From: Longimicrobiales bacterium
GTDB taxonomy: Bacteria; Gemmatimonadota; Gemmatimonadetes; Longimicrobiales; Gaopeijiaceae
Assembly: GCA_041690395.1 (NCBI GenBank)
Contig: JAWLHJ010000007.1
Coordinates: 64,001 to 128,000 of the forward strand
Direction of reading: 5' to 3'
Length of the DNA: 64,000 nucleotides
Part shown: positions 46,788-63,178 of the stretch, in pieces
Layout of the letters: each line of letters opens with the position of its first letter
Position numbering within the stretch: position 1 is the stretch's first letter
The notes under the pieces: model-generated
Told to the model about the DNA's origin: nothing
The model's input: the letters and a program-made list of their open reading frames with translations, nothing else
Database searches by the model: none
Program-made: the position numbers and the translations under genes

Positions 46788-47945
46788 ATGTCCCCCAGGG
46801 ACGCGCATTGCCCTCCGCTCCGCGCCTTCCGGTGGGGCCTCGCTGCGCTCGCCCTGACGCTCGGTCCCGCGTCCGCCTCCGCCCAGGATCTCCCGTTCCA
46901 ACGGGACTACCCCGGCTCGAGTCAGTACGAGTGCGGCTCGTCCGACCCTCCGGCCGTCGCCAGCGCCGAGGCCAGGGGCCAGGCCGCCCAGCTCGCATCG
47001 AGTGCGGCCCAGGCGGTTCTCCTCGGCGATCTGGATCGGGCCGGCGCCATGCTGGAGCGGGCCACGGAGCTCGACCCCGCATCTGCGGATCTGGCGTATC
47101 GGCGGGCCAGGGTCCTGGAAGATCTCGGGCAGCGAGAGGCGGCCGGCGGCGAATATTGCCGGTCCCTCGCGCTCCTCGACTCCGGCGACACCGCCGAAGA
47201 CGCCCGGGCGCGGCTCGAGGCCCTCGTAGAGGCCGAAGCGGAGAGCGTCCCGACCCAGGCCTTGGCGGCGTTCCGCATGGGGCTCGAAGCCGTGGATGCG
47301 GGTATGCTGGATGAGGCCGTCGACGCGTTCCAGGTCGCGGAGACCGAGGGGGGCGACTGGCCGGCCGCCACGTACAACCGGGGGGTTGCGCTGGAGCGCC
47401 TCGGACGGCCGGGAGAGGCGGCCCAGGCTCTCTCCTCCTATCTACAGCTGCGGCCGGACGCCCCGGACGCCTTGGTGGTCTCCCGGCGCATCGGTCAGCT
47501 GCAGAGTCTCGCGCTGTCTGACGGGCCCAGCCCCGGGACCGCCCTCACCCTGGGGATCCTCATGCCCGGTCTCGGGCACTTCTACTCCGGCCGGCCCGGG
47601 AGCGGCGTAGCGGTCCTCGCGCTCGCCGGCGGCGCCGTGGCGGCAGGGTTCCTGATCAAGGAAGTGGATATCCGGTGCCTCACGCCCCAACAGGGCGCGT
47701 GTCCGCCCGATCAGGTCGTTTCGCGCACCACGAGCCGACCGTATCTCACCGCCTCGCTGGCCGCTGCTGCTGCGGTGGGCCTGGCCGGAGCCATCGAGGC
47801 GTTCGTCGATGCGCGGGGGAGGCGGGGAAGTGGCGCCACGTTCGCGCAGTCTGCGGGTGACGACACCGATCTCGTCGTGCTCCCGGGGCTCGACATCCAT
47901 CGTGGAAAGATCGGTTTCGGCCTTCTCGGGCTGAGGTTCCGCTGA
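46788..47945 (+). CDS. Secreted TPR protein with C-terminal hydrophobic PGLGHFY region
   Basis: Signal peptide; TPRs (YNRGVALE.LG); GILMPGLGHFYSG. Confidence 0.78.
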   Translation: MSPRDAHCPPLRAFRWGLAALALTLGPASASAQDLPFQRDYPGSSQYECGSSDPPAVASAEARGQAAQLASSAAQAVLLGDLDRAGAMLERATELDPASADLAYRRARVLEDLGQREAAGGEYCRSLALLDSGDTAEDARARLEALVEAEAESVPTQALAAFRMGLEAVDAGMLDEAVDAFQVAETEGGDWPAATYNRGVALERLGRPGEAAQALSSYLQLRPDAPDALVVSRRIGQLQSLALSDGPSPGTALTLGILMPGLGHFYSGRPGSGVAVLALAGGAVAAGFLIKEVDIRCLTPQQGACPPDQVVSRTTSRPYLTASLAAAAAVGLAGAIEAFVDARGRRGSGATFAQSAGDDTDLVVLPGLDIHRGKIGFGLLGLRFR

Positions 47946-50900
47946 TGAGCGCCAGGACGAGGGCCATGTTCCGGCGGATGACCGGTGGGTTCCGGCGCCG
48001 CTTCGTGGTTGGGCTCCTCGCGTCGGTCCTCGGCGCCCTGGGCCTGATCCAGGCGTGTACGTCGGAGAACATCTCGGGTGTCGTCGTCGGGACCGTCACC
48101 GTCTCTCCCTCCTCGCAGTCGGTCGTGGTCGGCGAGACCGCTGACTTCGATGCCACCGTGACCGACGAGAACGGAGCTACGCTCTCGGGCGCGGCCGTCT
48201 CGTGGTCCATCTCGAGCGAAGACGGCGACGTGGCCACGATCGACGGGAATGGGCGGGTCACCGGTCTGGCCATCGGCGTCGCGCGGGTCGTCGCCACGTT
48301 CCAGGGAAGCTCGGACGAGGCCACCCTGACCGTCCAACCGCCGCCGGTCCTCTCCATCACCCCGGAGGTGGCGGCGTTCTACGCGGGTGTGGGCGGACCC
48401 GACCCGGAGCCCGTCGTGTTCACCGTGGGGAACGCCGGCTCGGGCACGATCGAAGGCCTCTCCGCGGAGATCGCATATCCGGAAGGCGAGGAAACGGATT
48501 GGCTGGCCGTCGAGCTCTCCGGCTCCACGACTCCGGCCGATCTCGACATGGTCGTATCCGGCGCGGGCCTCGGCTCGGGTCGCTTCAGCGCGACCGTCAC
48601 GCTCACGACGTCCGACCCGGACGACCCGCCGTTCGTCGTGCCCGTGACGTTCGTACGGTCGAGCTTCACGCTCACCGTTCCGCCCGAGGGCCTCGTGGTC
48701 GATGAGGGGGGCAGTACGGCCACGTTCACGGTGGCGTTGGATGTCGCGCCCGAGAGCGACGTGGTGCTCGACGTGGCTTCTGCTGACGAGGAAGAGCAAG
48801 AGGTGGTCGTCGACCCTGCGCAGATCACGTTTACTCCCGAGAACTGGGATGTCGGGCAGGCCGTGACGGTGACCGGAGTCGACGACGCGGCCGAGGATGG
48901 AGCCCAGGACGTCCTGGTCACCGTTTCGGTGAACACCTCGGCATCCGATCCGGCCTACGGTCCCGCGCTGGATCGCTCGGTGACAGTCACCAACCAGGAC
49001 GATGACGCGGCGGGGTTCACGGTGGTCCAGACGAACGGGGCCACGATCGTGGACGAGGCCGGGCTGCGGGATACGTTGACCGTGTCACTCGGCACCGAGC
49101 CTACGGCCGAGGTGGTCATCTCCGTGTCCGCATCGGACCTGAGCGCGGCGATCGTGAGCCCGCAGACGCTCACCTTCACGCTCGCCAACTGGGACACGCC
49201 GCAGCGAGTCGTCGTGCAGGGCGTGGACGACGACGCCGTCGACGGGCCTCAGGAAAGCACCGTGACGTTCACCGTCGTCGATGACGAGTCGGATGCCGCG
49301 TATCAGGGGCTGCCGCCGCAGGTCATCGATGTGACGACGCTGGATGACGACGGGGCGGCGATCCAGGTGACGGAGAGCCAGGGAAATACCGTAGTGGGTG
49401 AGAGCGGGAGCACGGATGCGTTCACGGTCCAGTTGTCGGGGCGACCGAGCGCGGACGTGGTACTTTCCATTGGGAGCGCGGACACAGGCGAGGCGACTGT
49501 CAATCCAACGTCGCTGACGTTCACGCCGGACGACTACGACGTGGCTCAGCCCGTCACTGTCTCAGGAGTCGACGACAACCTCGTGGACGGTGACATGGTG
49601 ACCGACGTGACTGTGGTCGTCGTTGCCGCGAGCTCGGCGGCGGAGTATGCGGGCGCGGGGCCTGCCACGATTCAGGTCACCACCACGGATGACGACAGGG
49701 CCGCCCTGATTGTGACCCAAACAGACGGCGGGGCCGCCGTCTCCGAGGCCGGTACCTCCGACACCTTCACACTCGCCCTGTCGGCTCGTCCCCTGACGGA
49801 CGTGGTGGTCACCGCCTCGAGCGCCGATGAAGGAGAGGTCACGGTCGCGCCCGCCATCCTCACGTTCACGACCGATACCTGGGATGCTCCCCAGACCCTG
49901 ACCGTGACCGGCGTCGACGACGACATCATCGACGGGAACCAGGACGTCGACGTGACGCTCGTGGTGGATGCGGCGCAGTCAGATCCGATTTACGAGACCG
50001 TGGACACGACGGTCGTCGTCACGAACGCGGACGATGATGCCCCGGGCTTCACGATCACCTCCGGCACCACCGTGAGCGTGTCCGAGGCCGGCGGGACTGC
50101 GCCGGTCACGGTCATCCTCAACACGGAGCCGGCATCGGACGTCGTCCTCGACTTCGCGATCGCGGACGCGACCGTGGCCACCGTGGAGCCGACGACGCTC
50201 ACGTTCACCGCGGGGAACTGGGATACGCCGCAGTCCGTGACGGTCACGGGTGTGGATGACGACATAGTCGACGGCGCTCAGGTCGCCGACCTGACCGTCT
50301 CCGTGGATGCCGCGGCGTCCGACGACGACTACGACGGGGTCGCCGATCAAACCGTCTCGGTCACGGCATTGGACGACGACGTTGCCGGGTTCACGCTCGC
50401 GGACGCCGAAAGCCTGACCGTCTCCGAGGCCGGCGGGACCGACGCCTTCACCGTGGTCCTCGACGCCCAGCCGCTCGCGGCTGTGGTGCTCACCGTGAGC
50501 AGCGGTGACGCCACGGAGGTCGCGGTGAGTCCCACGACGCTCACCTTCACGGACGCCAATTGGAGCACACCTCGAACCGTGACGGTCACCGGCGTCGACG
50601 ACGACGTCGTGGATGGGGCCGCGATTACCGCGGTAACCGTGGCCGTCGATCCCGCCCAGTCAGACGACGCCTTCGACGGGGTGGCGAGCCAGGAAGCCAG
50701 TGTCACGACAACGGACAACGAAGTGGCCGGATTCACGCTGGCGGATACGGCCGGCTTGTCGGTATCAGAGAGCGGCACGGGAACGGCTGATTTCACGGTC
50801 GTGCTGGACGCTGCGCCGATCGCTCAAGTCACGTTCGCAATCACGAGTGAGGATACCGGGGAGGTCACGGCGAGTCCGCCGACGCTCACGTTCACGGCAT

Positions 50901-53191
50901 CGAACTGGAGCACGCCTCAGAGTGTCACGTTGGCCGGTGTCGACGAGTTCGTGGTGGACGGTGACCAGAGCACGACGATCAGGGTCGAGGTGGACGACGG
51001 CGCGTCGGACGACGCGTGGGATGCCCTGGCGGACCAGACGGCGAGCGTGACGACGACCGACGACGACGTGGCGGGGTTCACGCTCGCGGCCACGGCCGGC
51101 TTGTCCGTGTCGGAAGACGGCTCGGTGACGGACGCATTCACGGTGGTGCTCGACGCTCAGCCGGTGCGCGACGTAGTGCTGACGGTCACCAGCGGCGATA
51201 CGGGCGAGGTGACCGCGACGTCGCCGCTGAGGTTCACGTCGGCGAACTGGAATGCACCTCAGGATGTCACGCTCACGGGTGTGGACGACTTCGAAGTCGA
51301 TGGTGATCAAGCCACAACGATCACAGTGTCGGTGGACGCCGGCGCCTCGGACGACGCGTGGGATGCCCTGGCGGACCAGACGGCGAGCGTGACGACGACG
51401 GACGACGATGTGGCGGGGTTCACGCTCGCGGAGACGGCTGGCCTCAGCGTGAGCGAGAGCGGAACGACGGACGCCTTCTCGGTCGTGCTCGACGCGGAGC
51501 CGGCGTCGAACGTGGTGTTCAACGTGACGAGTGCGGATACGGGAGAGGTCACGGTGGCGTCGCCGGTCACGTTCACGCCTGTGAACTGGAATGTCCCTCA
51601 GAGCGTCACCGTGTCGGGTGTCGACGACGCCGTGAACGATGGCGATCAGCAGACCACGGTCACAGTGTCTGTCGACGATGCGCAGTCCGACGACGACTTC
51701 GATGGGCTGGCCGATCAATCGGTGACTGTCACTACGGTGGACGACGACGGGGTCGGTATCACCGTGGACCCGGAGACCGTATCGGTGAGTGAATCGGGAT
51801 CGACCGCGACCTTCACCGTAGTGCTCAACTCAGAGCCCTCCGAAGGCGAGGTCGTCGTCGTCGACGTGGGATCCCTGGACACCGGAGAGGCCAATGCTTC
51901 GCCGGCGCAGCTCACGTTCACACGTGCGGGCGGCGCCGACCCGTGGAACGTGCCGCAGACGGTGACCGTCACGGGTGAGGACGATGACCTCGTCGATGGC
52001 GACCAGACGACGCGAGTCGTGGTGATCGTCGATGCGCCGGCCTCCGATCCGGACTACTTCGAGGAGAGCCGTTCCGTCACGGTGACGACGACGGACGATG
52101 ACGAAGCTTCTCTCGTCTTGTCGACGACGACGGTGACGGCCGTCGAGGGCGGAGCGACGGGGACTTTCACGGTGGCGTTGGGTGCTCAGCCGAGCGGTGC
52201 GGTGGAGTTCTCGGTGGTGAGTGCGGACGCGACGCAGGCGACGGTGAGCCCTGCTTCGCTGACGTTCGACGGGACGACGTGGGACGATCCGCAGACGGTG
52301 TCGGTGACCGCGGTGGACGACGATCTCGTGGACGGAGATGAGCCGGTGGACGTCACGCTGGACGTTACGTCTTCGGCGGACGCTGCGTTCGCGGATCTGA
52401 GCGCAGTCGTAGCAGCGACCGCCGAGGACAACGACGTGCCGGGGCTGGTGCTGGAGGGTGGTCCGGTGGCAGTAACGGAAGGCGGGGCGACGGACGAACT
52501 GACGGTGCGGTTGTCGTCGGAGCCGACGGCGGACGTGACGGTCGGGTTCGCCTTCGACGCGGCGGGTCAGGTCGCATTGAGCGATACGACGCTGACGTTC
52601 ACGTCCGCGAACTGGAACGTTGACCAGCCGGTGACGGTGAGCGCGGTGGACGACAGCGTCGCCGAGGGTGAGCAAGTGGTCGGGCTCACGCTGTCAGTGC
52701 AGACGGGGGACGCGACGTACCTTGCGGTACCGGATGAGCCGACATCGGTGACGGTGACCGACAACGACGTGCCGGGGCTGGTGCTGGAGGGTGGTCCGGT
52801 GGCAGTAACGGAAGGCGGGGCGACGGACGAACTGACGGTGCGGTTGTCGTCGGAGCCGACGGCGGACGTGACGGTCGGGTTCGCCTTCGACGCGGCGGGT
52901 CAGGTCGCGTTGAGCGATACGACGCTGACGTTCACGTCCGCGAACTGGAACGTTGACCAGCCGGTGACGGTGAGCGCGGTGGACGACGCTATCGCTGAGC
53001 CGGAGCAGGTCGTGGCCCTGACGCTGTCAGTGCAGACGGGAGACGCGACGTACCTGGCGGTGCCGGACGAAGTGACATCGGCGACGGTGACCGACAACGA
53101 CCCAGCGGGTCTGGTCCTCAGAGGTGGTCCCGCGACGGTCACCTCAGTCGACACCGACGTCGCCGAGGCCGCCCTCGCCCCCTCCCGCTAA
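47945..53191 (+). CDS. Giant acidic surface lipoprotein: Big_2-like domain plus 13 Calx-beta-like repeats of about 110 aa
   Basis: IQAC lipobox; VTVSP...W...VATID.NG.VTG; 13 x LTFT..NW..PQ.VTV.GVDD. Confidence 0.88.
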   Translation: MSARTRAMFRRMTGGFRRRFVVGLLASVLGALGLIQACTSENISGVVVGTVTVSPSSQSVVVGETADFDATVTDENGATLSGAAVSWSISSEDGDVATIDGNGRVTGLAIGVARVVATFQGSSDEATLTVQPPPVLSITPEVAAFYAGVGGPDPEPVVFTVGNAGSGTIEGLSAEIAYPEGEETDWLAVELSGSTTPADLDMVVSGAGLGSGRFSATVTLTTSDPDDPPFVVPVTFVRSSFTLTVPPEGLVVDEGGSTATFTVALDVAPESDVVLDVASADEEEQEVVVDPAQITFTPENWDVGQAVTVTGVDDAAEDGAQDVLVTVSVNTSASDPAYGPALDRSVTVTNQDDDAAGFTVVQTNGATIVDEAGLRDTLTVSLGTEPTAEVVISVSASDLSAAIVSPQTLTFTLANWDTPQRVVVQGVDDDAVDGPQESTVTFTVVDDESDAAYQGLPPQVIDVTTLDDDGAAIQVTESQGNTVVGESGSTDAFTVQLSGRPSADVVLSIGSADTGEATVNPTSLTFTPDDYDVAQPVTVSGVDDNLVDGDMVTDVTVVVVAASSAAEYAGAGPATIQVTTTDDDRAALIVTQTDGGAAVSEAGTSDTFTLALSARPLTDVVVTASSADEGEVTVAPAILTFTTDTWDAPQTLTVTGVDDDIIDGNQDVDVTLVVDAAQSDPIYETVDTTVVVTNADDDAPGFTITSGTTVSVSEAGGTAPVTVILNTEPASDVVLDFAIADATVATVEPTTLTFTAGNWDTPQSVTVTGVDDDIVDGAQVADLTVSVDAAASDDDYDGVADQTVSVTALDDDVAGFTLADAESLTVSEAGGTDAFTVVLDAQPLAAVVLTVSSGDATEVAVSPTTLTFTDANWSTPRTVTVTGVDDDVVDGAAITAVTVAVDPAQSDDAFDGVASQEASVTTTDNEVAGFTLADTAGLSVSESGTGTADFTVVLDAAPIAQVTFAITSEDTGEVTASPPTLTFTASNWSTPQSVTLAGVDEFVVDGDQSTTIRVEVDDGASDDAWDALADQTASVTTTDDDVAGFTLAATAGLSVSEDGSVTDAFTVVLDAQPVRDVVLTVTSGDTGEVTATSPLRFTSANWNAPQDVTLTGVDDFEVDGDQATTITVSVDAGASDDAWDALADQTASVTTTDDDVAGFTLAETAGLSVSESGTTDAFSVVLDAEPASNVVFNVTSADTGEVTVASPVTFTPVNWNVPQSVTVSGVDDAVNDGDQQTTVTVSVDDAQSDDDFDGLADQSVTVTTVDDDGVGITVDPETVSVSESGSTATFTVVLNSEPSEGEVVVVDVGSLDTGEANASPAQLTFTRAGGADPWNVPQTVTVTGEDDDLVDGDQTTRVVVIVDAPASDPDYFEESRSVTVTTTDDDEASLVLSTTTVTAVEGGATGTFTVALGAQPSGAVEFSVVSADATQATVSPASLTFDGTTWDDPQTVSVTAVDDDLVDGDEPVDVTLDVTSSADAAFADLSAVVAATAEDNDVPGLVLEGGPVAVTEGGATDELTVRLSSEPTADVTVGFAFDAAGQVALSDTTLTFTSANWNVDQPVTVSAVDDSVAEGEQVVGLTLSVQTGDATYLAVPDEPTSVTVTDNDVPGLVLEGGPVAVTEGGATDELTVRLSSEPTADVTVGFAFDAAGQVALSDTTLTFTSANWNVDQPVTVSAVDDAIAEPEQVVALTLSVQTGDATYLAVPDEVTSATVTDNDPAGLVLRGGPATVTSVDTDVAEAALAPSR
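50999..51430 (+). repeat. Near-identical ~90-bp segments 342 bp apart inside the giant gene
   Basis: ...GACGACGCGTGGGATGCCCTGGCGGACCAGACGGCGAGCGTGACGACGAC... starting near 50999 and 51341. Confidence 0.85.
52427..53130 (+). repeat. 333-bp tandem duplication plus start of a third unit
   Basis: GACAACGAC at 52427, 52760 and 53093; first two-thirds of copies 1 and 2 nearly identical. Confidence 0.92.
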
Positions 53192-53194
53192 CCC

Positions 53195-55192
53195 ATGCCC
53201 GACCACCCCCCCGGGCCGCCCCGTCCCCCCGACCGCCCCCTCGACAACGAGCCGCCGCCCCTCCTCACCTACGACGAATCGGCGCCCGAGGAGGAGCCGT
53301 TCTCGCCCGACGGGGGTCCCCAGCGACCGAGCGGCCGGCGCCGATGGGCACTCACGCTCATCCTGCTCGCGCTGCTGGCCGGAGGCGGATACGTTGCGTT
53401 CACGGTCGCCCGATCGGCGCCGGCCGACGCCTCCCTCGAGCTCACACCGCTTCCAGCCGTGGGGTCGACCGAGGCACTGACCAGCTCCACGTCGGCCCTC
53501 ATCCCGCTGACACCGACCGACACCGTCGTCCTGCCGGGCACGGAGGTCGAGCTCGCGGTCCGCGCTAGGGAAGGGGACTCGCCGGCCGCGGACATCCTCC
53601 TCCGCTTCGAAATCGAGATCGGATCGACGGGTCGGGAGGAAGAGGTCTGGACCGACGCGTCGGGCATCGGTCGCGTCACCGTGCAGATGCCCTCGCGCCC
53701 GGCTTCCGCGCTGGTGCGGGTTTCCTCCGGATCGCTGGAGGCCGCAGGTCCGACCTTCCGGATCGCGTCCCGCACGGGATCGCCGGCGACGTTGGACGCC
53801 ACGGCGGGAGACGATCAGGAGGGCGATGCGGGAACGCTTCTGCCCGAACGGCTGGAGGTCGAGGTGCGAGACGAGTCGGGCGTTCCGGTTCCCGGCGTCG
53901 AGCTCTTCTTCGAGGTGGCGACAGGAGACGGGCTCACGGCGCCATCCCGCGCGCGGACCGACACCCTCGGCCGCGCCTCGGCCATCTGGCGGCTGGGCTC
54001 GGGTCCCGGGCCGCAGACCCTCGTGGTCTCGGCCGACGAGCTCACCGAGTCGGTGATCTTCAACGCCACCGCGCGACCGAGCGATGACGTCGCGGTCAGC
54101 GGGGGCACCCCCGGCGAGGCCCCGGGCACAGCAGAGGCCACGCCCGGCGGCCCAGGCGGAACGCCCTCCGGCCCGGTCTCCGTGGTGCCTCGGGACCGCT
54201 CCATCGGAGGCGCGAGCGTGTGCGCCATCGTCAGCGGATCGGTGACCTGCCGTGGCGCGAACGATCGCGGCCAGCGCCTGGTCGGGGGGATCACGGGGGC
54301 GAGGGCGGTAGCGGCGGGCCTCTTCCACGGCTGCGCGCTCGACGCCGCGGGCGTGGCCCGGTGCTGGGGCGCCAATGAGTCCGGGCAGCTCGGTGACGGA
54401 TCCACCACCGACCGCGCCGCACCGGTCCCCGTGACGACAGACCTCCGGTTCAACTCGATTGCTGCCGGCCTCGCCCACACGTGCGCGATCGCGGCGGCCG
54501 GGCAGGCCGTATGCTGGGGCGCGAACCTCGGTGGGCAGCTCGGTGACGGCACCCGCAACGATCGCGCTTTACCCGATGCCGTCGCGGAGTCCTCCGACCT
54601 TTCACGCGTCGTGGCCGGCTGGAACCACACGTGCGGGATCACGAGCAACGGCGTGGCCTACTGCTGGGGGCTGAACCGTGACGGAGCGGTCGGTGATGGC
54701 ACCCGCCTCGACCGGCTCGCTCCGACCCGCGTGCTCGACGGCGTGACCGACCTGGCCGCGGGCAGTGCGCACACGTGCGCCGTGCGCCAGGGCGAGGCGC
54801 TCTGCTGGGGCTCCAACGCCGCCGGCCAGCTCGGCGACGGCACCACACAGGCGAAGCCGAGCCCGGCCCCCATCGGCGATCTTCCGGGAACGGTCACGGC
54901 GATCGCCGCTGGCGCGGCCCACACCTGCGCCCTCCTCGATGACGGGTCGGCATATTGCTGGGGCCAGAACCTCTACGGTCAGTTGGGCAACGGCAGCGCC
55001 GCGCCTTCGACCGCGCCCCGCGCCGTGGCCGGCGACCTGCGTTTCGCCCGCATCCACGCAGGCGGTGGGGTCACGTGCGGCATCACCGGCGACGGCGTCG
55101 AGTACTGCTGGGGCCTCAACCAGAGCGGTGAGCTGGGCGACGGCACACGCACCAACCGAGCCGTACCGACTCGCGTCGGCGGGGGCGGTTAA
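53195..55192 (+). CDS. Membrane-anchored Ig-like plus RCC1/BLIP-II beta-propeller protein
   Basis: Pro-rich N-terminus, one TM, GDDQ.G Ig-like units, seven HTC...CWG.N..GQLGDG repeats. Confidence 0.9.
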   Translation: MPDHPPGPPRPPDRPLDNEPPPLLTYDESAPEEEPFSPDGGPQRPSGRRRWALTLILLALLAGGGYVAFTVARSAPADASLELTPLPAVGSTEALTSSTSALIPLTPTDTVVLPGTEVELAVRAREGDSPAADILLRFEIEIGSTGREEEVWTDASGIGRVTVQMPSRPASALVRVSSGSLEAAGPTFRIASRTGSPATLDATAGDDQEGDAGTLLPERLEVEVRDESGVPVPGVELFFEVATGDGLTAPSRARTDTLGRASAIWRLGSGPGPQTLVVSADELTESVIFNATARPSDDVAVSGGTPGEAPGTAEATPGGPGGTPSGPVSVVPRDRSIGGASVCAIVSGSVTCRGANDRGQRLVGGITGARAVAAGLFHGCALDAAGVARCWGANESGQLGDGSTTDRAAPVPVTTDLRFNSIAAGLAHTCAIAAAGQAVCWGANLGGQLGDGTRNDRALPDAVAESSDLSRVVAGWNHTCGITSNGVAYCWGLNRDGAVGDGTRLDRLAPTRVLDGVTDLAAGSAHTCAVRQGEALCWGSNAAGQLGDGTTQAKPSPAPIGDLPGTVTAIAAGAAHTCALLDDGSAYCWGQNLYGQLGNGSAAPSTAPRAVAGDLRFARIHAGGGVTCGITGDGVEYCWGLNQSGELGDGTRTNRAVPTRVGGGG

Positions 55193-55230: not shown

Positions 55231-55671
55231 CTACCCGTGCCACTCCAGATGGCGCCTGTACTCCTCCAGGAACACGCGAATCAGGTCGTCCTGGTCGGCG
55301 CCCGTCACGTCGCGTTCGAGCGCGCGGTCTCGAAGATGCACCTCGGCGCGATAGGTCTTCCCCTCCGGATCGCGCAACGGCACGGCGGGGAAGGCGAACC
55401 CCTCGGTGCCGTAGGGCTTCACGCGCACCTCGAAGAAGAACTCCTCGCGGTCGTCGTGGAAGACCGTGACCGCGACGTATCGATCATCCTCGTCCACCTC
55501 GACGTGCCGGCCGTGCTCCTGAAGCTCGGCCGCGACCTCTTCGAGCGCCGGGATGACCACCCGGGCGAGGTAGTGCCGGATCCGCGGGGGCTCGCCGTCG
55601 CGCGGCCCGGCGCGCTCCGGTGCGTTCGACCGTCCGAGCAGCGCCCCCAGGTCTTCTTTCCAGTCACTCAT
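55231..55671 (-). CDS. Stand-alone BetT-type C-terminal cytoplasmic domain
   Basis: PALEEVAAEL..HG..VE, EEF.FEV, YRAEVHL, LEEYRRHLEW resemble the E. coli BetT C-terminus as recalled; own SD GGAGGTGA. Confidence 0.75.
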   Translation of the reverse strand: MSDWKEDLGALLGRSNAPERAGPRDGEPPRIRHYLARVVIPALEEVAAELQEHGRHVEVDEDDRYVAVTVFHDDREEFFFEVRVKPYGTEGFAFPAVPLRDPEGKTYRAEVHLRDRALERDVTGADQDDLIRVFLEEYRRHLEWHG

Positions 55672-57308
55672 CGATCACCTCCCGTGGGGGTTGCCGGTGC
55701 CTCGCCGGGCACCCGTTCGACCGCGGTGCGCTCGGTCTCTGCGCGTCCTCCGCCGTCCTGCGCGGCGGCCCCGGATCTTCCACCCTCCTTCTTCGCCGGG
55801 AACACCTTCCGCACGTGGGTCGGCGGAGCTCGCTCCGAACGGAGCGCCTTGAACAGTGCGAAGCACATCCCGAGAAGCACGACCGCGAACGGAAGTCCGG
55901 TCACGATCGCCGCCGTCTGCAGGGCGGCGAGCCCGCCGGTGATCAGCAGAACCGCAGCCACGGCGCCCTCGAGGAGCGCCCAGAACACCCGCTGGAACAC
56001 CGGAGGATCGGGGTCGCCTCCCGACGCCAGCATGTCGATGACGAGCGATCCGGAATCCGACGACGTGACGAAGAACGCGATGATCACGACCATGGCGAGG
56101 ACCGAGGTCACCGACGCCAGAGGAAGGCCCTGCAGGAGCGCGAAGAGCATCTCCTCGGTCGCGAGCCCGGTCAGCCCGCCGACGCCGAGCAGCTCGCGAC
56201 GCAGCGCGGTACTCCCGAACGTGGTCAGCCAGAACGTGGCGAAGGCGGCGGGCACGAGGAGCACGCCGGCCACGAACTCCCGGATGGTCCTGCCGCGTGA
56301 GATACGCGCTATGAACATGCCCACGAAGGGTGACCAGGCGATCCACCATCCCCAGTAGAACAGGGTCCAGTCGGCCTGCCATGCGCCGTCGCCCCACGTG
56401 TCGAGCCAGAACGTCGCCGATACCAGCGACGACAGGTAGTTGCCGGTGTTCTCGAGCCACGCCCCGAGCAGGAATACCGTGGGCCCCACCGTGAACACGA
56501 AAAGCACGAGCACCAGGGCCACGACGAGGTTGAAGTTCGACAGCCTCCGGATGCCGTTGTCGAGCCCGGCCACCACCGAGATGGTGGCGATCAGCGTGAT
56601 ACCCGCGATGAGCGCGACCTGGATGTTGGTGCCGATCCCGACATCGAAGAGGAAGTCGAGACCGGCGTTGACCTGCATGACACCGAGACCCAGCGAGGTG
56701 GCGACGCCGAAGAGCGTTCCGAAGATGGCCAGGACGTCGACCGTGTGGCCGATGGGCCCGTAGATGCGCTCGCCCAGCAGTGGATGGAATGCCGACCGAA
56801 TCGAGAGGGGCAGGCCCTTCCGGAACGAAGCGTACGCCAGCGCGAGCCCCACCACGATGTAGATCGCCCAGGCGTGGAATCCCCAGTGGAAGAAGGTGAG
56901 GCGCATGGCGTCGGCCGCCGCGGCCGCCGTGCCGGGCTCCGCGAAGGGAGGCGCCGCGAAGTGCGCGATCGGCTCGGCCACCGAGAAGAACACCAGCCCG
57001 ATGCCCATGCCGGCGCTGAAGAGCATCGCGAACCACGACAGGTACGAATAGTCGGGCTCCGAGTCGTCGGGCCCGAGCCGCACGCGGCCCGCCGGGCTGA
57101 ACAGCAGGTAGACGGCGAACGCGAGGAAGGCCGCGACCGACCCGATGTACAGCCAGCCGAACCTCTGCACGATCCCGGCCTGGATCGCGTCGAAGACGAT
57201 CGCCGTGCGCGCGGGAGCCAGGACGCCGAACGCGAGGAACACGGCGATGACCGCGATGGCCGGGAAGAACACCGGGGGGCTGAAGTCGAACTGCCGCTTC
57301 CAGTCCAT
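55668..57308 (-). CDS. BCCT family (betaine/choline/carnitine) transporter
   Basis: SWFAMLFSAGMGIG, WTLFYWGWWIAWSPFVG, FFVTSSDSG. Confidence 0.95.
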   Translation of the reverse strand: MDWKRQFDFSPPVFFPAIAVIAVFLAFGVLAPARTAIVFDAIQAGIVQRFGWLYIGSVAAFLAFAVYLLFSPAGRVRLGPDDSEPDYSYLSWFAMLFSAGMGIGLVFFSVAEPIAHFAAPPFAEPGTAAAAADAMRLTFFHWGFHAWAIYIVVGLALAYASFRKGLPLSIRSAFHPLLGERIYGPIGHTVDVLAIFGTLFGVATSLGLGVMQVNAGLDFLFDVGIGTNIQVALIAGITLIATISVVAGLDNGIRRLSNFNLVVALVLVLFVFTVGPTVFLLGAWLENTGNYLSSLVSATFWLDTWGDGAWQADWTLFYWGWWIAWSPFVGMFIARISRGRTIREFVAGVLLVPAAFATFWLTTFGSTALRRELLGVGGLTGLATEEMLFALLQGLPLASVTSVLAMVVIIAFFVTSSDSGSLVIDMLASGGDPDPPVFQRVFWALLEGAVAAVLLITGGLAALQTAAIVTGLPFAVVLLGMCFALFKALRSERAPPTHVRKVFPAKKEGGRSGAAAQDGGGRAETERTAVERVPGEAPATPTGGDR

Positions 57309-57523
57309 ATGGGCTCCTGGAGTCGGAGGAGGGGGGCCACGGACGATATGGCGAGTGGTGCCTGGGCGCGAGCCGATCGTCGAACGACTCGCGGGCTCGC
57401 GTGTATCCGAGAACCAGCACCGACGCGCCTTGCCGCCTCCGCGCGGCGGGCGCACGTTGCATCCTTCCGGCCTGCGGGATTCCTTCCGCTCGGCCGCTCC
57501 AACCCATCATCAGGAGTCGCTAG

Positions 57524-59760: not shown

Positions 59761-62700
59761 TCAGCGCCCTCCCGGCCGCCGGTACCGCACCGGCGGCGCC
59801 GGCTCCACCTGCAGCAACTCCACGCCTTCCGTCTCCAGCAGCCGGAGTGCTTCCTCGACCGCCCGCTCGAGCTGCGGATCGCCCCCGGCGATGACCGGGG
59901 CCGGGTCGTTGCGGACCTCGATGTCCGGCGCGACGCCCGTCGCCTCCACGGCCCACTCTCCGTCCACGTCGATGAACCCGCCGCGAGGCGCCACGAACCC
60001 GCCGCCGTCGATGAGCGGCGGGGTGTCCCACGTGCCGACCAGGCCGCCCCAGGTGGTCGTGCCCACGAGCGGGCCCACGCCCTTGAACCGGAAGAGATAA
60101 GGCAGGAGATCGCCGCCCGACCCGGCGCGCTCGTTCATGACCATCACCTTCGGCCCCCACAGCCCGGCCATCGGCTGGGTCCAGGGCTTCCGGTCGCCGG
60201 CGCGCGAGTTGAAGTATCCGGTAAGCTCCCGCGCCATCACGTCGACGATGTAGTCCGCGGCCGAGCCGCCGCCGTTGTTCCGCTCGTCGATGACGGCGCC
60301 CTCGCGGTCCTGCTGCGCGAAGTACATGCGGTTGAAGTAGTCGTAGCCGCCCTGGCCGGTGTTCGGGAGCCACACGTAGGCCAGCCGACCGCCACTCATC
60401 TCGTCGACCCGGCGTTGGTTCTCGGCGACCCAGGCCCACCTGCGGATGCCCGACTCGCTCTCGACGGGCTCGACGTGGACCGTGCGCGCGTCGGCACCGC
60501 CGGGCGTCGACGCTACGGTCACCGTGATGGTCCGCCCCGCGGTCCCCTCGAGGAGACGGAACGGGTTCGCCGGCGCAGCGAGCGGCTGCCCGTCGATGGC
60601 GACGAGCCAATCTCCTTCGGCGACGCCGAGGCCCGGCAGCGACAGTGGTCCGTGCTCGCCGGGGGTCCAGTCCTCCCCGCTGTAGATGCGGGTGATGCGG
60701 TACGCTTCGTCCTCTTCCTCGAGGTCGATACCGAGGAGGCCCGTACGCGGGCTGTCGAGGTCGGGATAATCGCCCCCACGCACGTACGAGTGCCCAACGG
60801 CGATCTCACCCGACATCATGTCGAGGAGATGATTGAAGTCCGAGCGGTGCTCCACGTCCGGCAGCCAGGCCGAGTACCAGTCCCACACGTCGTCCCAGGG
60901 GGCGCCGTGTTGGTTGTCGACGTAGAGGAAGTCGCGCATGAAGCGCCAGCCGTCACGGAGCATCTGGGCCCACTCGGCCTCGGGCTCCACGAGCACGCGC
61001 ATATCGCCCAGCGCGAGCCCACCATCGTCGTCGGATGGCGCATCGTCGGTCTCCACGATGCGCCAGCTGCTTCCGCTCCTGAGCAGGATCCTCGAGCGGT
61101 CGTGCGACACGGCGGTGCGCACCACCTCGGTGGCGAACTCCTCGGCTTCCCGGTCTTCGAGCACGTACTTGTGGAGGGTCGCGCCGTCGTCGCCGGCTTC
61201 GAGCACGAAGACCGAGCCGGCCGGGCCGGGCTCGAGCCCCGTGTAGTCGCGGAGCGGGAGGCCGGGCGCGTCCACGATGCGGCGGGCGATGCCGTCGAAG
61301 TCGATGCGGACCGGGGGCGGCGGATCCTGACTCCCGGCCTGATCGGCGTCCGCACCTGCGCCCGAACCGGCGCCCCCGCCGCTCGCCTCATCGTCGCTGG
61401 CTCCGCCCCTTCCGCCCGCAGCACGCTCGGCACCCTCCTCGTCACTCGTGGGCAGGAACGGGGAAGGGGTGTCCTCCGCGAGGAGCGCGACGTACAGCGC
61501 CCGGGTCACGGGCCGGTCGTACGAGCTCATGTCGAGCCAGCCGGTATTCAGCCCGTAATCCGTCGACGCGAGGAAGTAGAGGTAGTCGCCGCTCTCGTCC
61601 CACACCGGGTCGATGGCGTCGGCCATACCGTCGGTGAGCTCGCGGGTCTCGCCGCTCTCAGTGTCGTGCACCACGATCATCCGGAGCTGGGTGTCGAGGC
61701 GCCGCGCGTACGCGATCCAGCGGGAGTCGGGCGACCAGACCGGATTCATCGTACGCTGCGGGTGCGCGTACCGGTCGGTGTCCACATGGGTGACGTCCCC
61801 CGACTCGGCGTCCAGCACGAGCACGCGGTAGTGCGTGTCGGTGAACGCCAGCTTCGAGCCGTCGGGCGACCACTCGGGCACGAAGTAGAACGACGGGTCG
61901 TCGATGGCGATGCGGTGCGCGTTGGCGCCGTCCTGGTCCGCGATGACGAGCCCGTACTCGCCGTCCTGGTCGTTGAACCAGGCGACACGGCTTCCGTCCG
62001 GCGACCAGACCGGGTGTCGGTCGGCCACGCCTGGCGAGCGCGTCAGGTTGCGCCACGACCCTTCCTCGGCGGGTACGCTGAAGATCTCACCCCGCCACTC
62101 GAAGAGCGCGCGGGCGCCGGTCGGGGAGAGGCGGGCGTCACGAAGCTGCGTCGGCGGGACGTCCTCCCACCGCGGCCGGGCCCAGTTCTGGTCGCGCGCG
62201 GCCCGGACCTCGAGCTGACGGCTCGCGCCCGTCGCCGGGTCCAGCTCGTGGAGATAACCGGCCTGCTCGTAGACCAGCACGCCGTCTCCCGCTCCGAGAC
62301 TCTTCACGTCGAAGTCCGCGTGGCGGGTGAGCTGCCGCTCCTGCCCGGTCGCCGGATCGAACTCCCAGACGTTGGCCGCCCAGTCCCGCTCCGACATGTA
62401 GTAGATCCTACCGTCCATCCATACGGGTGCGAGATGTCGCTCGCCCTCCCACGGCGCGGTGGTCCGCTCCCAGGTCGCCGTCGAGACGATGGCCGCCGGC
62501 TGCGCCTGGCCTCCTCGGTAGTTGCGCCACTCCGGGTCCCAGAGCCCGATCTCCTGGTACGTGATCCAGTCGCCGTCCTCGCTCATCTCGCCCTCGTACG
62601 CCTGGGGCAGGGCGAGCGGCTCGGGGAGTCCGCCGGTCACCGGGACCGTGTAGAAGCGCCAGAGCATGGTGGGCACGCCGTCGCGTCCGGACCGGAACAG

Positions 62701-63120
62701 GACCCGCCCGTCCGGCGTCCATCCCTGGACCGCGTCCTCGCCCGGATGCCAGGTGAGCCGCTCGGGCTGGCCGCCGGTGGCCGCCACGACGTAGACGTCG
62801 GCGTTCCCGCCGTACTCGCCCGTGAACGCGATCCACCGGCCGTCGGGGCTGAAGTGCGGATCGGTCTCGGCTCCCTCCGAGCTCGTGAGGCGGAGCGCGT
62901 CGCCGCCGTCCCGACCCACGGTCCAGACATCGTTGGCGTGGACGAACGCGATCCTCTCGGCGCTCACGTCGGGCTGGCGGAGGAAGCGGGTGCCCTGGGC
63001 GGCGACGTCGGCGGTCGTCAGCGCGGCGGCCGAGCCGGCGAGGACGAGTGTCGTGAACAGTCGGGCCAGGGTCGGCGTCGCGGCACGGGGCGTCGACGGG
63101 CTTCGGGGGGCGGCGGACAT
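59761..63120 (-). CDS. Tricorn-like S41 protease (beta-propellers, PDZ, S41)
   Basis: PD40 repeats FSPDGRWIAF, HSY, DERNNGGG, AGSGGD, GTTTWGG, GVAPDIEV. Confidence 0.95.
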   Translation of the reverse strand: MSAAPRSPSTPRAATPTLARLFTTLVLAGSAAALTTADVAAQGTRFLRQPDVSAERIAFVHANDVWTVGRDGGDALRLTSSEGAETDPHFSPDGRWIAFTGEYGGNADVYVVAATGGQPERLTWHPGEDAVQGWTPDGRVLFRSGRDGVPTMLWRFYTVPVTGGLPEPLALPQAYEGEMSEDGDWITYQEIGLWDPEWRNYRGGQAQPAAIVSTATWERTTAPWEGERHLAPVWMDGRIYYMSERDWAANVWEFDPATGQERQLTRHADFDVKSLGAGDGVLVYEQAGYLHELDPATGASRQLEVRAARDQNWARPRWEDVPPTQLRDARLSPTGARALFEWRGEIFSVPAEEGSWRNLTRSPGVADRHPVWSPDGSRVAWFNDQDGEYGLVIADQDGANAHRIAIDDPSFYFVPEWSPDGSKLAFTDTHYRVLVLDAESGDVTHVDTDRYAHPQRTMNPVWSPDSRWIAYARRLDTQLRMIVVHDTESGETRELTDGMADAIDPVWDESGDYLYFLASTDYGLNTGWLDMSSYDRPVTRALYVALLAEDTPSPFLPTSDEEGAERAAGGRGGASDDEASGGGAGSGAGADADQAGSQDPPPPVRIDFDGIARRIVDAPGLPLRDYTGLEPGPAGSVFVLEAGDDGATLHKYVLEDREAEEFATEVVRTAVSHDRSRILLRSGSSWRIVETDDAPSDDDGGLALGDMRVLVEPEAEWAQMLRDGWRFMRDFLYVDNQHGAPWDDVWDWYSAWLPDVEHRSDFNHLLDMMSGEIAVGHSYVRGGDYPDLDSPRTGLLGIDLEEEDEAYRITRIYSGEDWTPGEHGPLSLPGLGVAEGDWLVAIDGQPLAAPANPFRLLEGTAGRTITVTVASTPGGADARTVHVEPVESESGIRRWAWVAENQRRVDEMSGGRLAYVWLPNTGQGGYDYFNRMYFAQQDREGAVIDERNNGGGSAADYIVDVMARELTGYFNSRAGDRKPWTQPMAGLWGPKVMVMNERAGSGGDLLPYLFRFKGVGPLVGTTTWGGLVGTWDTPPLIDGGGFVAPRGGFIDVDGEWAVEATGVAPDIEVRNDPAPVIAGGDPQLERAVEEALRLLETEGVELLQVEPAPPVRYRRPGGR

Positions 63121-63178
63121 CGGAGGCACTCCTCGGGCGGGTAGGACCGAACCTCCGCCAGACTAAGGAGGCCGCGCG

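Follow-up and report, generated by a model that had tools for sequence, protein, structure and literature searches.

The question raised by this locus is whether a transporter of the BCCT family may be regulated by a domain that is encoded as a separate protein. In the window (the whole stretch of 64,000 nucleotides that was analysed, from the Longimicrobiales genome G000), a BCCT gene is followed by a small open reading frame, which a sequence-only reading of the DNA had taken for the osmoregulatory C-terminal domain (CTD) of BetT, present as a gene in its own right. The features of the two genes are as follows.

55668..57308, minus strand: BCCT-family transporter of 546 aa, without a C-terminal domain (PF02028, TIGR00842)
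55231..55671, minus strand: free-standing BetT C-terminal-domain protein (146 aa, 17 kDa, pI 5.0), with no membrane helix and a frataxin/CyaY-like alpha/beta fold
57314..57318, minus strand: Shine-Dalgarno-like AGGAG before the transporter ATG, read from the sequence
56997..57014, minus strand: TM3 motif A-G-M-G-I-G, residues 99-104, of the GXGXG type, invariant in 10 of 10 split transporters
56334..56348, minus strand: tryptophan prism W321/W322/W325, equivalent by alignment to W327/W328/W331 of PsBetT (PMC11323884, available sections) and invariant among the split transporters
55797..55811, minus strand: tail motif R-K-V-F-P, residues 500-504, a candidate docking motif for the free domain
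55671..55793, minus strand: low-complexity remnant of a linker (residues 506-546), which drifts, with a dN/dS of about 1.04 for the two closest pairs and a 30-nt in-frame deletion in related strains
55675..55683, minus strand: Shine-Dalgarno GGGAGGTGA of the small gene, read from the sequence, with a GGAGG core 7 nt before the ATGA overlap
55315..55338, minus strand: segment H112-D115-E119, equivalent to the PsBetT contact residues H627/E630/D634, mapped by hand from the alignment

The two gene products and their junction

The transporter matches PF02028 over its full length (E=6.7e-195, 648.6 bits against a cut-off of 27), and exceeds the threshold of TIGR00842 (533.9 bits against 407.55). 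The glycine betaine BCCT equivalog NF047988 is the best-scoring model, yet its score of 602.6 lies below the cut-off of 650, and the long-form BetT model NF007399 gives 509.1 bits, below its cut-off of 695, as is also the case for the fused sister protein P0027 (582.7). The best solved relative is TmaT (8ZW8, E=5.6e-152), followed by PsBetT and E. coli-type BetT (about 1e-118), and then by BetP (about 1e-99). The substrate is most plausibly glycine betaine, and remains uncertain because TmaT, the closest solved transporter, is a trimethylamine transporter and the NF047988 score is below the cut-off. The window transporter is the sole BCCT detected in G000 (98% complete), which encodes two OpuAC-type binding proteins and has no betA over the cut-off and no MttB; these last two absences argue against a system that serves choline-to-betaine synthesis or TMA methyl transfer.

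The GXGXG motif of the BCCTs is tied to Na+ coupling in the available part of PMC11708041, and the window transporter is likely Na+-coupled. Its TM3 motif has a Gly where the AGIGID of E. coli carries a proton-coupling acidic residue (D108 type). The AGMGIG motif, which the sequence-only reading had singled out, is indeed present, but it is not distinctive, given that 10 of 17 fused relatives share it (GIG[IT]D is found in four, and three were not parsed). For the same reason, the combination of AGMGIG with the domain was rejected as a hallmark of the split form.

Two tandem creatininase-family genes (PF02633; 57524-59232, plus strand) are divergent from the BCCT gene, and one such gene is also found near the BCCT in locus L001, whereas the scan of more distant loci did not show it there. 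A 1748-aa protein built of numerous acidic Ig-like repeats (47945-53191, plus strand) is followed by a 665-aa protein with Ig and RCC1 repeats (53195-55192, plus strand), which converges on the small gene, the RCC1 gene being kept in close relatives, and a Tricorn-type S41 protease of 1122 aa lies at 59761-63129 (minus strand).

The small protein has no match in Pfam. It aligns with residues 546-662 of the PsBetT chain (8YBQ, E=4.1e-10), with positions 540-658 of the 675 in NF007399 (E=3e-11), and with residues 527-660 of E. coli K-12 BetT (26% identity, pairwise E=2e-11), and all three of the motifs named for BetT in the sequence-only reading (PAMEEVAQEL, YYRLE, and DQYERHL) are present in the E. 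coli alignment. The AlphaFold model (pLDDT 76.7) has three helices and a sheet, and the Foldseek comparison that had been proposed as a check returned a single match at E<=0.001, the PsBetT structure 8YBR (E=1.3e-6, TM 0.61). The matches to 8YBQ, NF007399, and 8YBR confirm that the small open reading frame is the whole BetT C-terminal domain. A wide fold search, in which all the matches were below the noise level of Z 8 and BetT was not among the matches listed, gave a best Z of 7.7 for a Mediator subunit and 6.4 for CyaY/frataxin (rmsd 3.2-4.5 Å over 89-94 residues); these weak frataxin/CyaY matches are in line with the fold that the available sections of PMC11323884 describe for the PsBetT domain. 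The ESM Atlas contained only unnamed clusters of 144-155 aa, with recognition below the threshold, and database records name these proteins as hypothetical or, in three JGI records, as choline/glycine/proline betaine transport protein.

The transporter ends in a low-complexity stretch (...TPTGGDR*), and the small gene starts at an ATGA overlap (55671-55668) with its stop, behind GGGAGGTGATCG, an arrangement with a strong Shine-Dalgarno that had been described correctly from the letters. A GGAG or GAGG precedes the small gene in all the relatives printed except L062. A promoter scan found 0 sites (0.2 expected), and the only terminator-like site lies inside the open reading frame (1.0 expected).

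A frameshift artefact, which the sequence-only reading had itself raised as a possible refutation, was confirmed not to account for the split. Assembled contigs from three of four runs (X2, X3, and X4; two studies), which represent related strains, bridge the junction. The X3 and X4 contigs have a net in-frame deletion of 30 nt in the tail, inside the open reading frames (12 of 43 indel rows listed), while X2 has a net change of -31 over a span that includes non-coding DNA. The gaps between the genes among the split loci are -8, -4, +10, +27, +75, +90, and +122 nt and span all three frame offsets, which, together with the GGAG or GAGG upstream in all but L062, argues against a shared assembly error or a single recoding signal. 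Pairwise dN/dS (Nei-Gojobori, seven pairs, one not computable; short alignments of GC-rich DNA) amounts to 0.37-1.04 in the tail beyond the motif, compared with 0.08-0.20 in the membrane domain. In the small gene the values are 0.13-0.35, which indicates purifying selection close to that on the membrane domain.

Distribution, wider family and history

The survey of relatives for the same split, which had also been proposed, recovered the two-gene layout in seven other Gemmatimonadota genomes and six metagenome loci. The domain is present in 8 of the 401 Gemmatimonadota genomes, split in seven (including G000) and fused in one, and a second profile gave the same eight. The seven other genomes include L001, the one new locus among three from the scan of the genome collection (two were already counted), which covered Gemmatimonadota with a single protein as the query, and L008 (genome G288), where the evidence is weak. 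In L008, which belongs to the same genus, an intact small gene is preceded by a frameshifted transporter and there is a second, truncated BCCT match; the frameshifts are likely to be assembly indels. A BCCT is found in 52 of the 401 genomes, and 44 of these have no match to the domain, which, like the frameshifted transporter of L008, counts against regulation in trans.

The domain is also found outside this phylum. A profile search of 1.84 billion representatives recovered 494 clusters at E<=0.001, and the family analysis was based on 166 sequences (the best 150 of the 494, with the earlier matches added and two dropped), of which 122 are apparently complete free proteins (<=175 aa) and 11 full fused transporters, the other 33 being fragmentary or hard to assign. 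In a quick domain tree, 86 of these sequences, free and fused mixed, form clade A, which contains the query, and the other 80 form clade B, which has no fused transporter. Clade B is, beyond what the sequence-only reading had described, a large free-standing sister clade of the domain without a BCCT nearby. It is homologous both with clade A (HHalign 100%) and, at E=3.5e-13, with the domain of PsBetT, and no Pfam model was found for the two clade-B and two clade-A proteins tested. None of 40 clade-B loci (19 groups at 70% identity, assigned to the clade by profile score) has a BCCT upstream. One of the clade-B clusters is named from Candidatus Aminicenantes.

The genes next to clade B vary, although a 2H phosphoesterase is the next gene in 4 of the 30 loci scanned. 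In a subgroup represented by L050, L071, L079, and L089, the domain gene immediately precedes a LigT-like 2H phosphoesterase gene of the same strand, which it either overlaps or from which it lies 6-160 nt away, and this enzyme is possibly a different partner of the subgroup. The proteins of this free-standing family (P0034, P0064, and clade B, with loci L016, L042, L076, and L085, among others) are BetT-CTD homologues of 140-160 aa with the motif EG-x-FR-x-G-x-QDY. A divergent group with longer open reading frames of 192-205 aa (L023, L033, L046, L049, L052, L061, L065, L077, and L084) includes copies broken by a stop or frameshift in L049 and L061. In a plasmid collection, 1634 records match the BetT C-terminal domain, 1252 of them from Klebsiella.

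A motif scan of metagenomes returned at least 120 stretches, a biased sample because the pattern requires 'PAF'. Among the stretches listed, 80 had flanks, and of these 60 contained the domain and the other 20 matched by chance; of the 40 with 300-nt flanks, 26 contained it. Clade B accounts for 50 of the 60 true matches in the flanked loci listed, none of them with a BCCT in the fetched DNA. The split loci are L030, L059, L062, L063 (L074 is nearly identical), L083, and L109, while L054 has no upstream DNA. In the clade-A free loci with at least 600 nt upstream, a BCCT was found there in six of six (three groups at 70% identity), and wherever upstream DNA could be checked, clade-A free genes were never away from a BCCT. 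In L001 and L109, two more small genes lie directly downstream of the BCCT, and no third gene common across the lineages was found among the 41 flanking open reading frames scanned. Long open reading frames in L019, L017, L050, and L080, which were considered as new fusions, were read as spurious GC-rich upstream extensions (low-complexity, with no Pfam match in L019).

The helix-1 Trp is kept in all 12 BCCT-linked free proteins, all 41 other clade-A proteins, and all 17 fused domains, and in 54 of 56 clade-B proteins. As this residue is invariant and the free proteins begin 1-4 residues before it, the cut lies at the domain boundary. The split is confirmed as real, conserved, and selected.

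On the transporter tree, which is quick and unrooted, the main split clade (SH-aLRT 99) is sister to the fused P0027 (60% identity), and two other split transporters, L010 and L083, are placed elsewhere, among the fused forms. At least three changes between the split and fused states are required, and a single clade of split forms was rejected with a p-AU of 0.032, a modest value from a test made after the first tree was seen, on 24 sequences chosen by leaving out CTD-less ones, the long-branch P0067, and near-duplicates. In these sequences, the split and fused forms are interleaved on the tree and, without a root, fission is indistinguishable from fusion.

Probable regulation in trans and its rivals

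The preferred reading, to which a probability of about 0.6 is given, is that this is a two-gene BCCT whose separate, soluble BetT-type domain likely trimerises, docks under the trimeric transporter, and regulates the uptake of betaine-type osmolytes in trans. The ATGA overlap and the Shine-Dalgarno suggest that the genes would be co-transcribed and translationally coupled. The small protein would then trimerise through its counterparts of the PsBetT CTD-CTD interface, which are among its most conserved positions, and the trimer would bind to the cytoplasmic face of the transporter, where the KV[FY]P tail motif may take the place of a tether. If binding does occur, the balance tilts slightly towards a restraint of transport at low osmolarity, relieved on upshift as in PsBetT; the small protein may alternatively have the opposite sign, with an activating role, as in E. 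coli.

This scheme draws on the available sections of the PsBetT structure paper (PMC11323884), where the protein is described as domain-swapped, with each CTD restraining the neighbouring protomer and the CTDs forming a trimer layer of their own. Deletion of the CTD activates PsBetT, which is still trimeric and highly active, and the domain is inhibitory in Pseudomonas but is needed for full activation in E. coli BetT. Since each PsBetT domain already contacts the neighbouring protomer, a covalent link is unneeded in principle, and intermolecular regulation may persist without the tether, provided that a free trimer of threefold symmetry binds with avidity, by analogy with GlnK and SbtB on AmtB and SbtA (PMC10710835, available part).

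In the same sections of PMC11323884, the CTD-CTD trimer interface of PsBetT is formed by helix 1, the beta3-beta4 loop, and helices 2 and 3. The equivalent positions of the small protein (W4, L8, P41-A42, F92-x-F94-P95, I131, F134, and Y138) are kept in 11 or 12 of the 12 linked proteins, a conservation that points to a homotrimer, and they are more conserved than the PsBetT-type regulatory contact residues. The latter were mapped by hand, with a chain offset of +3, and checked on W57, G105, and W327/328/331. The equivalent of R168, R163, is invariant in 10 of 10 split transporters, while H87 corresponds to D82 and R508 lies beyond the aligned stretch. In the 12 BCCT-linked free proteins, the position of H627 (H112) is His in eight and not in the other four, that of E630 (D115) is Asp or Glu in nine, and that of D634 (E119) is a mixture of H, D, and E. 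The CTD-TMD contact set of PsBetT thus appears to be only partly kept, which counts against regulation in trans.

The tail after TM12 is 35-62 aa long in the split transporters (16 aa in L083), comparable to the linkers of 27-75 aa in the fused forms. The [RK]KV[FY]P motif is found in 9 of the 10 aligned split transporters and in L109, and KV[FY]P was not seen in the fused-form linkers printed. In the transporter-only model, which has low overall confidence (pLDDT 61.5), the motif has a pLDDT below 50, and its absence from the two outlying split lineages, L010 and L083, also counts against regulation in trans. The CTD-less BCCT loci (25 of the 30 fetched) have tails of 9-18 aa, and show neither the tail motif nor a domain gene in the flank that was fetched, a contrast with the split transporters that lies between distant clades and is not independent. 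The points in favour of regulation in trans include the constant position directly downstream of a BCCT, the similar purifying selection, the cut at the domain boundary, the longer tails, the interleaved tree, the domain swap of PsBetT, and the correspondence of R168, H627, and E630 to R163, H112, and D115; adjacency and shared selection are, for their part, no proof of interaction.

It is unlikely that the small protein works independently, as its clade-B relatives do, with no action on the transporter, in which case adjacency would reflect shared expression and ancestry, and the transporter would be constitutively active. The existence of clade B indicates that the domain can be retained in its own right, which counts against regulation in trans, and the frequency of this clade in the flanked metagenome loci, its varied neighbours, and the high activity of the trimeric, CTD-deleted PsBetT (PMC11323884, available sections) are all compatible with such a function. 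The clade-A free genes, however, were never found apart from a BCCT where upstream DNA existed, their proteins fall among the fused domains on the tree and have the F-x-FP loop and C-terminal Trp in common with the fused forms, and a selected motif is kept in an otherwise neutral transporter tail. A permanently bound structural subunit, or an assembly or stability factor, with no osmotic switching, would fit the fixed stoichiometry suggested by translational coupling and the higher conservation of the trimer interface relative to the regulatory contacts, but it is distinctly improbable, given that the PsBetT trimer forms without the domain, which has a regulatory role in all three species tested (PMC11323884, same sections).

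Two further explanations would remove the free subunit altogether. One frameshift could bridge the overlap in the window, and the tail has the size of a linker, so that programmed frameshifting or stop readthrough might yield a conventional fused long-form transporter; this is highly improbable, as the relatives occupy all three frame offsets, nearly all with their own Shine-Dalgarno and start codon, and no single signal fits them all. That the split reflects misassembly or the decaying remains of a broken betT, for which the frameshifted transporter of L008 might speak, is effectively refuted by the independent contigs that bridge the junction, the 13 other split loci, and the dN/dS of 0.13-0.35 in the small gene.

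Relation to known systems

Regulation of the transporter in trans, if it does occur, would make this the first two-subunit BCCT among the descriptions found. The sequence-only reading knew of no described example, and a search of the open-access full text of PMC and bioRxiv found no description of a split BCCT or a free BetT domain. Regulatory domains are commonly split off by fission; what stands out here is that the split arose repeatedly, along with the candidate docking motif and the orphan clade.

A separate subunit lends itself to titration, deletion, or exchange while the transporter is left intact, and the binding of a free, soluble 17-kDa domain can be followed directly as K+, ionic strength, crowding, lipids, or metal are varied. 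In the sections available, the 2024 structure paper leaves open how BetT senses osmotic stress (PMC11323884). The BCCT-independent clade provides a first structural handle on a family without a Pfam model, and hints at an intrinsic biochemical activity of the domain. A broader and rather doubtful possibility is that the BetT CTD belongs, as one branch, to an autonomous and so far unrecognised family of small frataxin-fold trimeric sensors, of which BetT may have recruited a member. In the window, this protein would be a dissociable, PII-like subunit of a BCCT, fused or unfused more than once, and clade B (dozens of clusters at 50% identity, including Aminicenantes) would have other partners.

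The PII regulators offer the nearest parallel in mechanism. In AmtB-GlnK and SbtA-SbtB, a separate soluble trimer binds and switches a trimeric transporter, and amtB and glnK are genetically linked (PMC10710835, available part). The small protein differs in its frataxin-like fold, has no Pfam match, and the fold searches list no PII protein; it has no known nucleotide site or modification, and trimer-on-trimer binding would here be a prediction.

Both TmaT (8ZW8) and the BetP of C. glutamicum are, like the window transporter, GXGXG-type BCCTs, and both are Na+-coupled. BetP senses through a different kind of tail, helical and 49 residues long (PMC11323884, available sections), while no BetT-type domain match was seen in TmaT, and the available parts of the sources describe no separate subunit for either transporter.

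The similarities with PsBetT (8YBQ/8YBR; PMC11323884, available sections) and E. coli BetT extend to the 12-TM BCCT architecture, the Trp prism, and the frataxin-like CTD of three helices and five strands. The equivalents of R168, H627, and E630 of PsBetT are kept in the window system, where H87 is replaced by Asp, and the TM3 motif is AGMGIG, in contrast with AGISIT in PsBetT and AGIGID in E. coli. In these two proteins, the domain is fused to the transporter, whereas in the window system and 13 other loci it is a separate open reading frame. The fused long-form GMG-type BCCTs (P0027, P0046, L040, L048, L051, and L014 from Azospirillum) differ from the window system in that a linker of 27-75 aa, with no KV[FY]P in the examples printed, joins both parts in one polypeptide, and they are the nearest relatives of the window transporter, with the same AGMGIG motif and the same domain.
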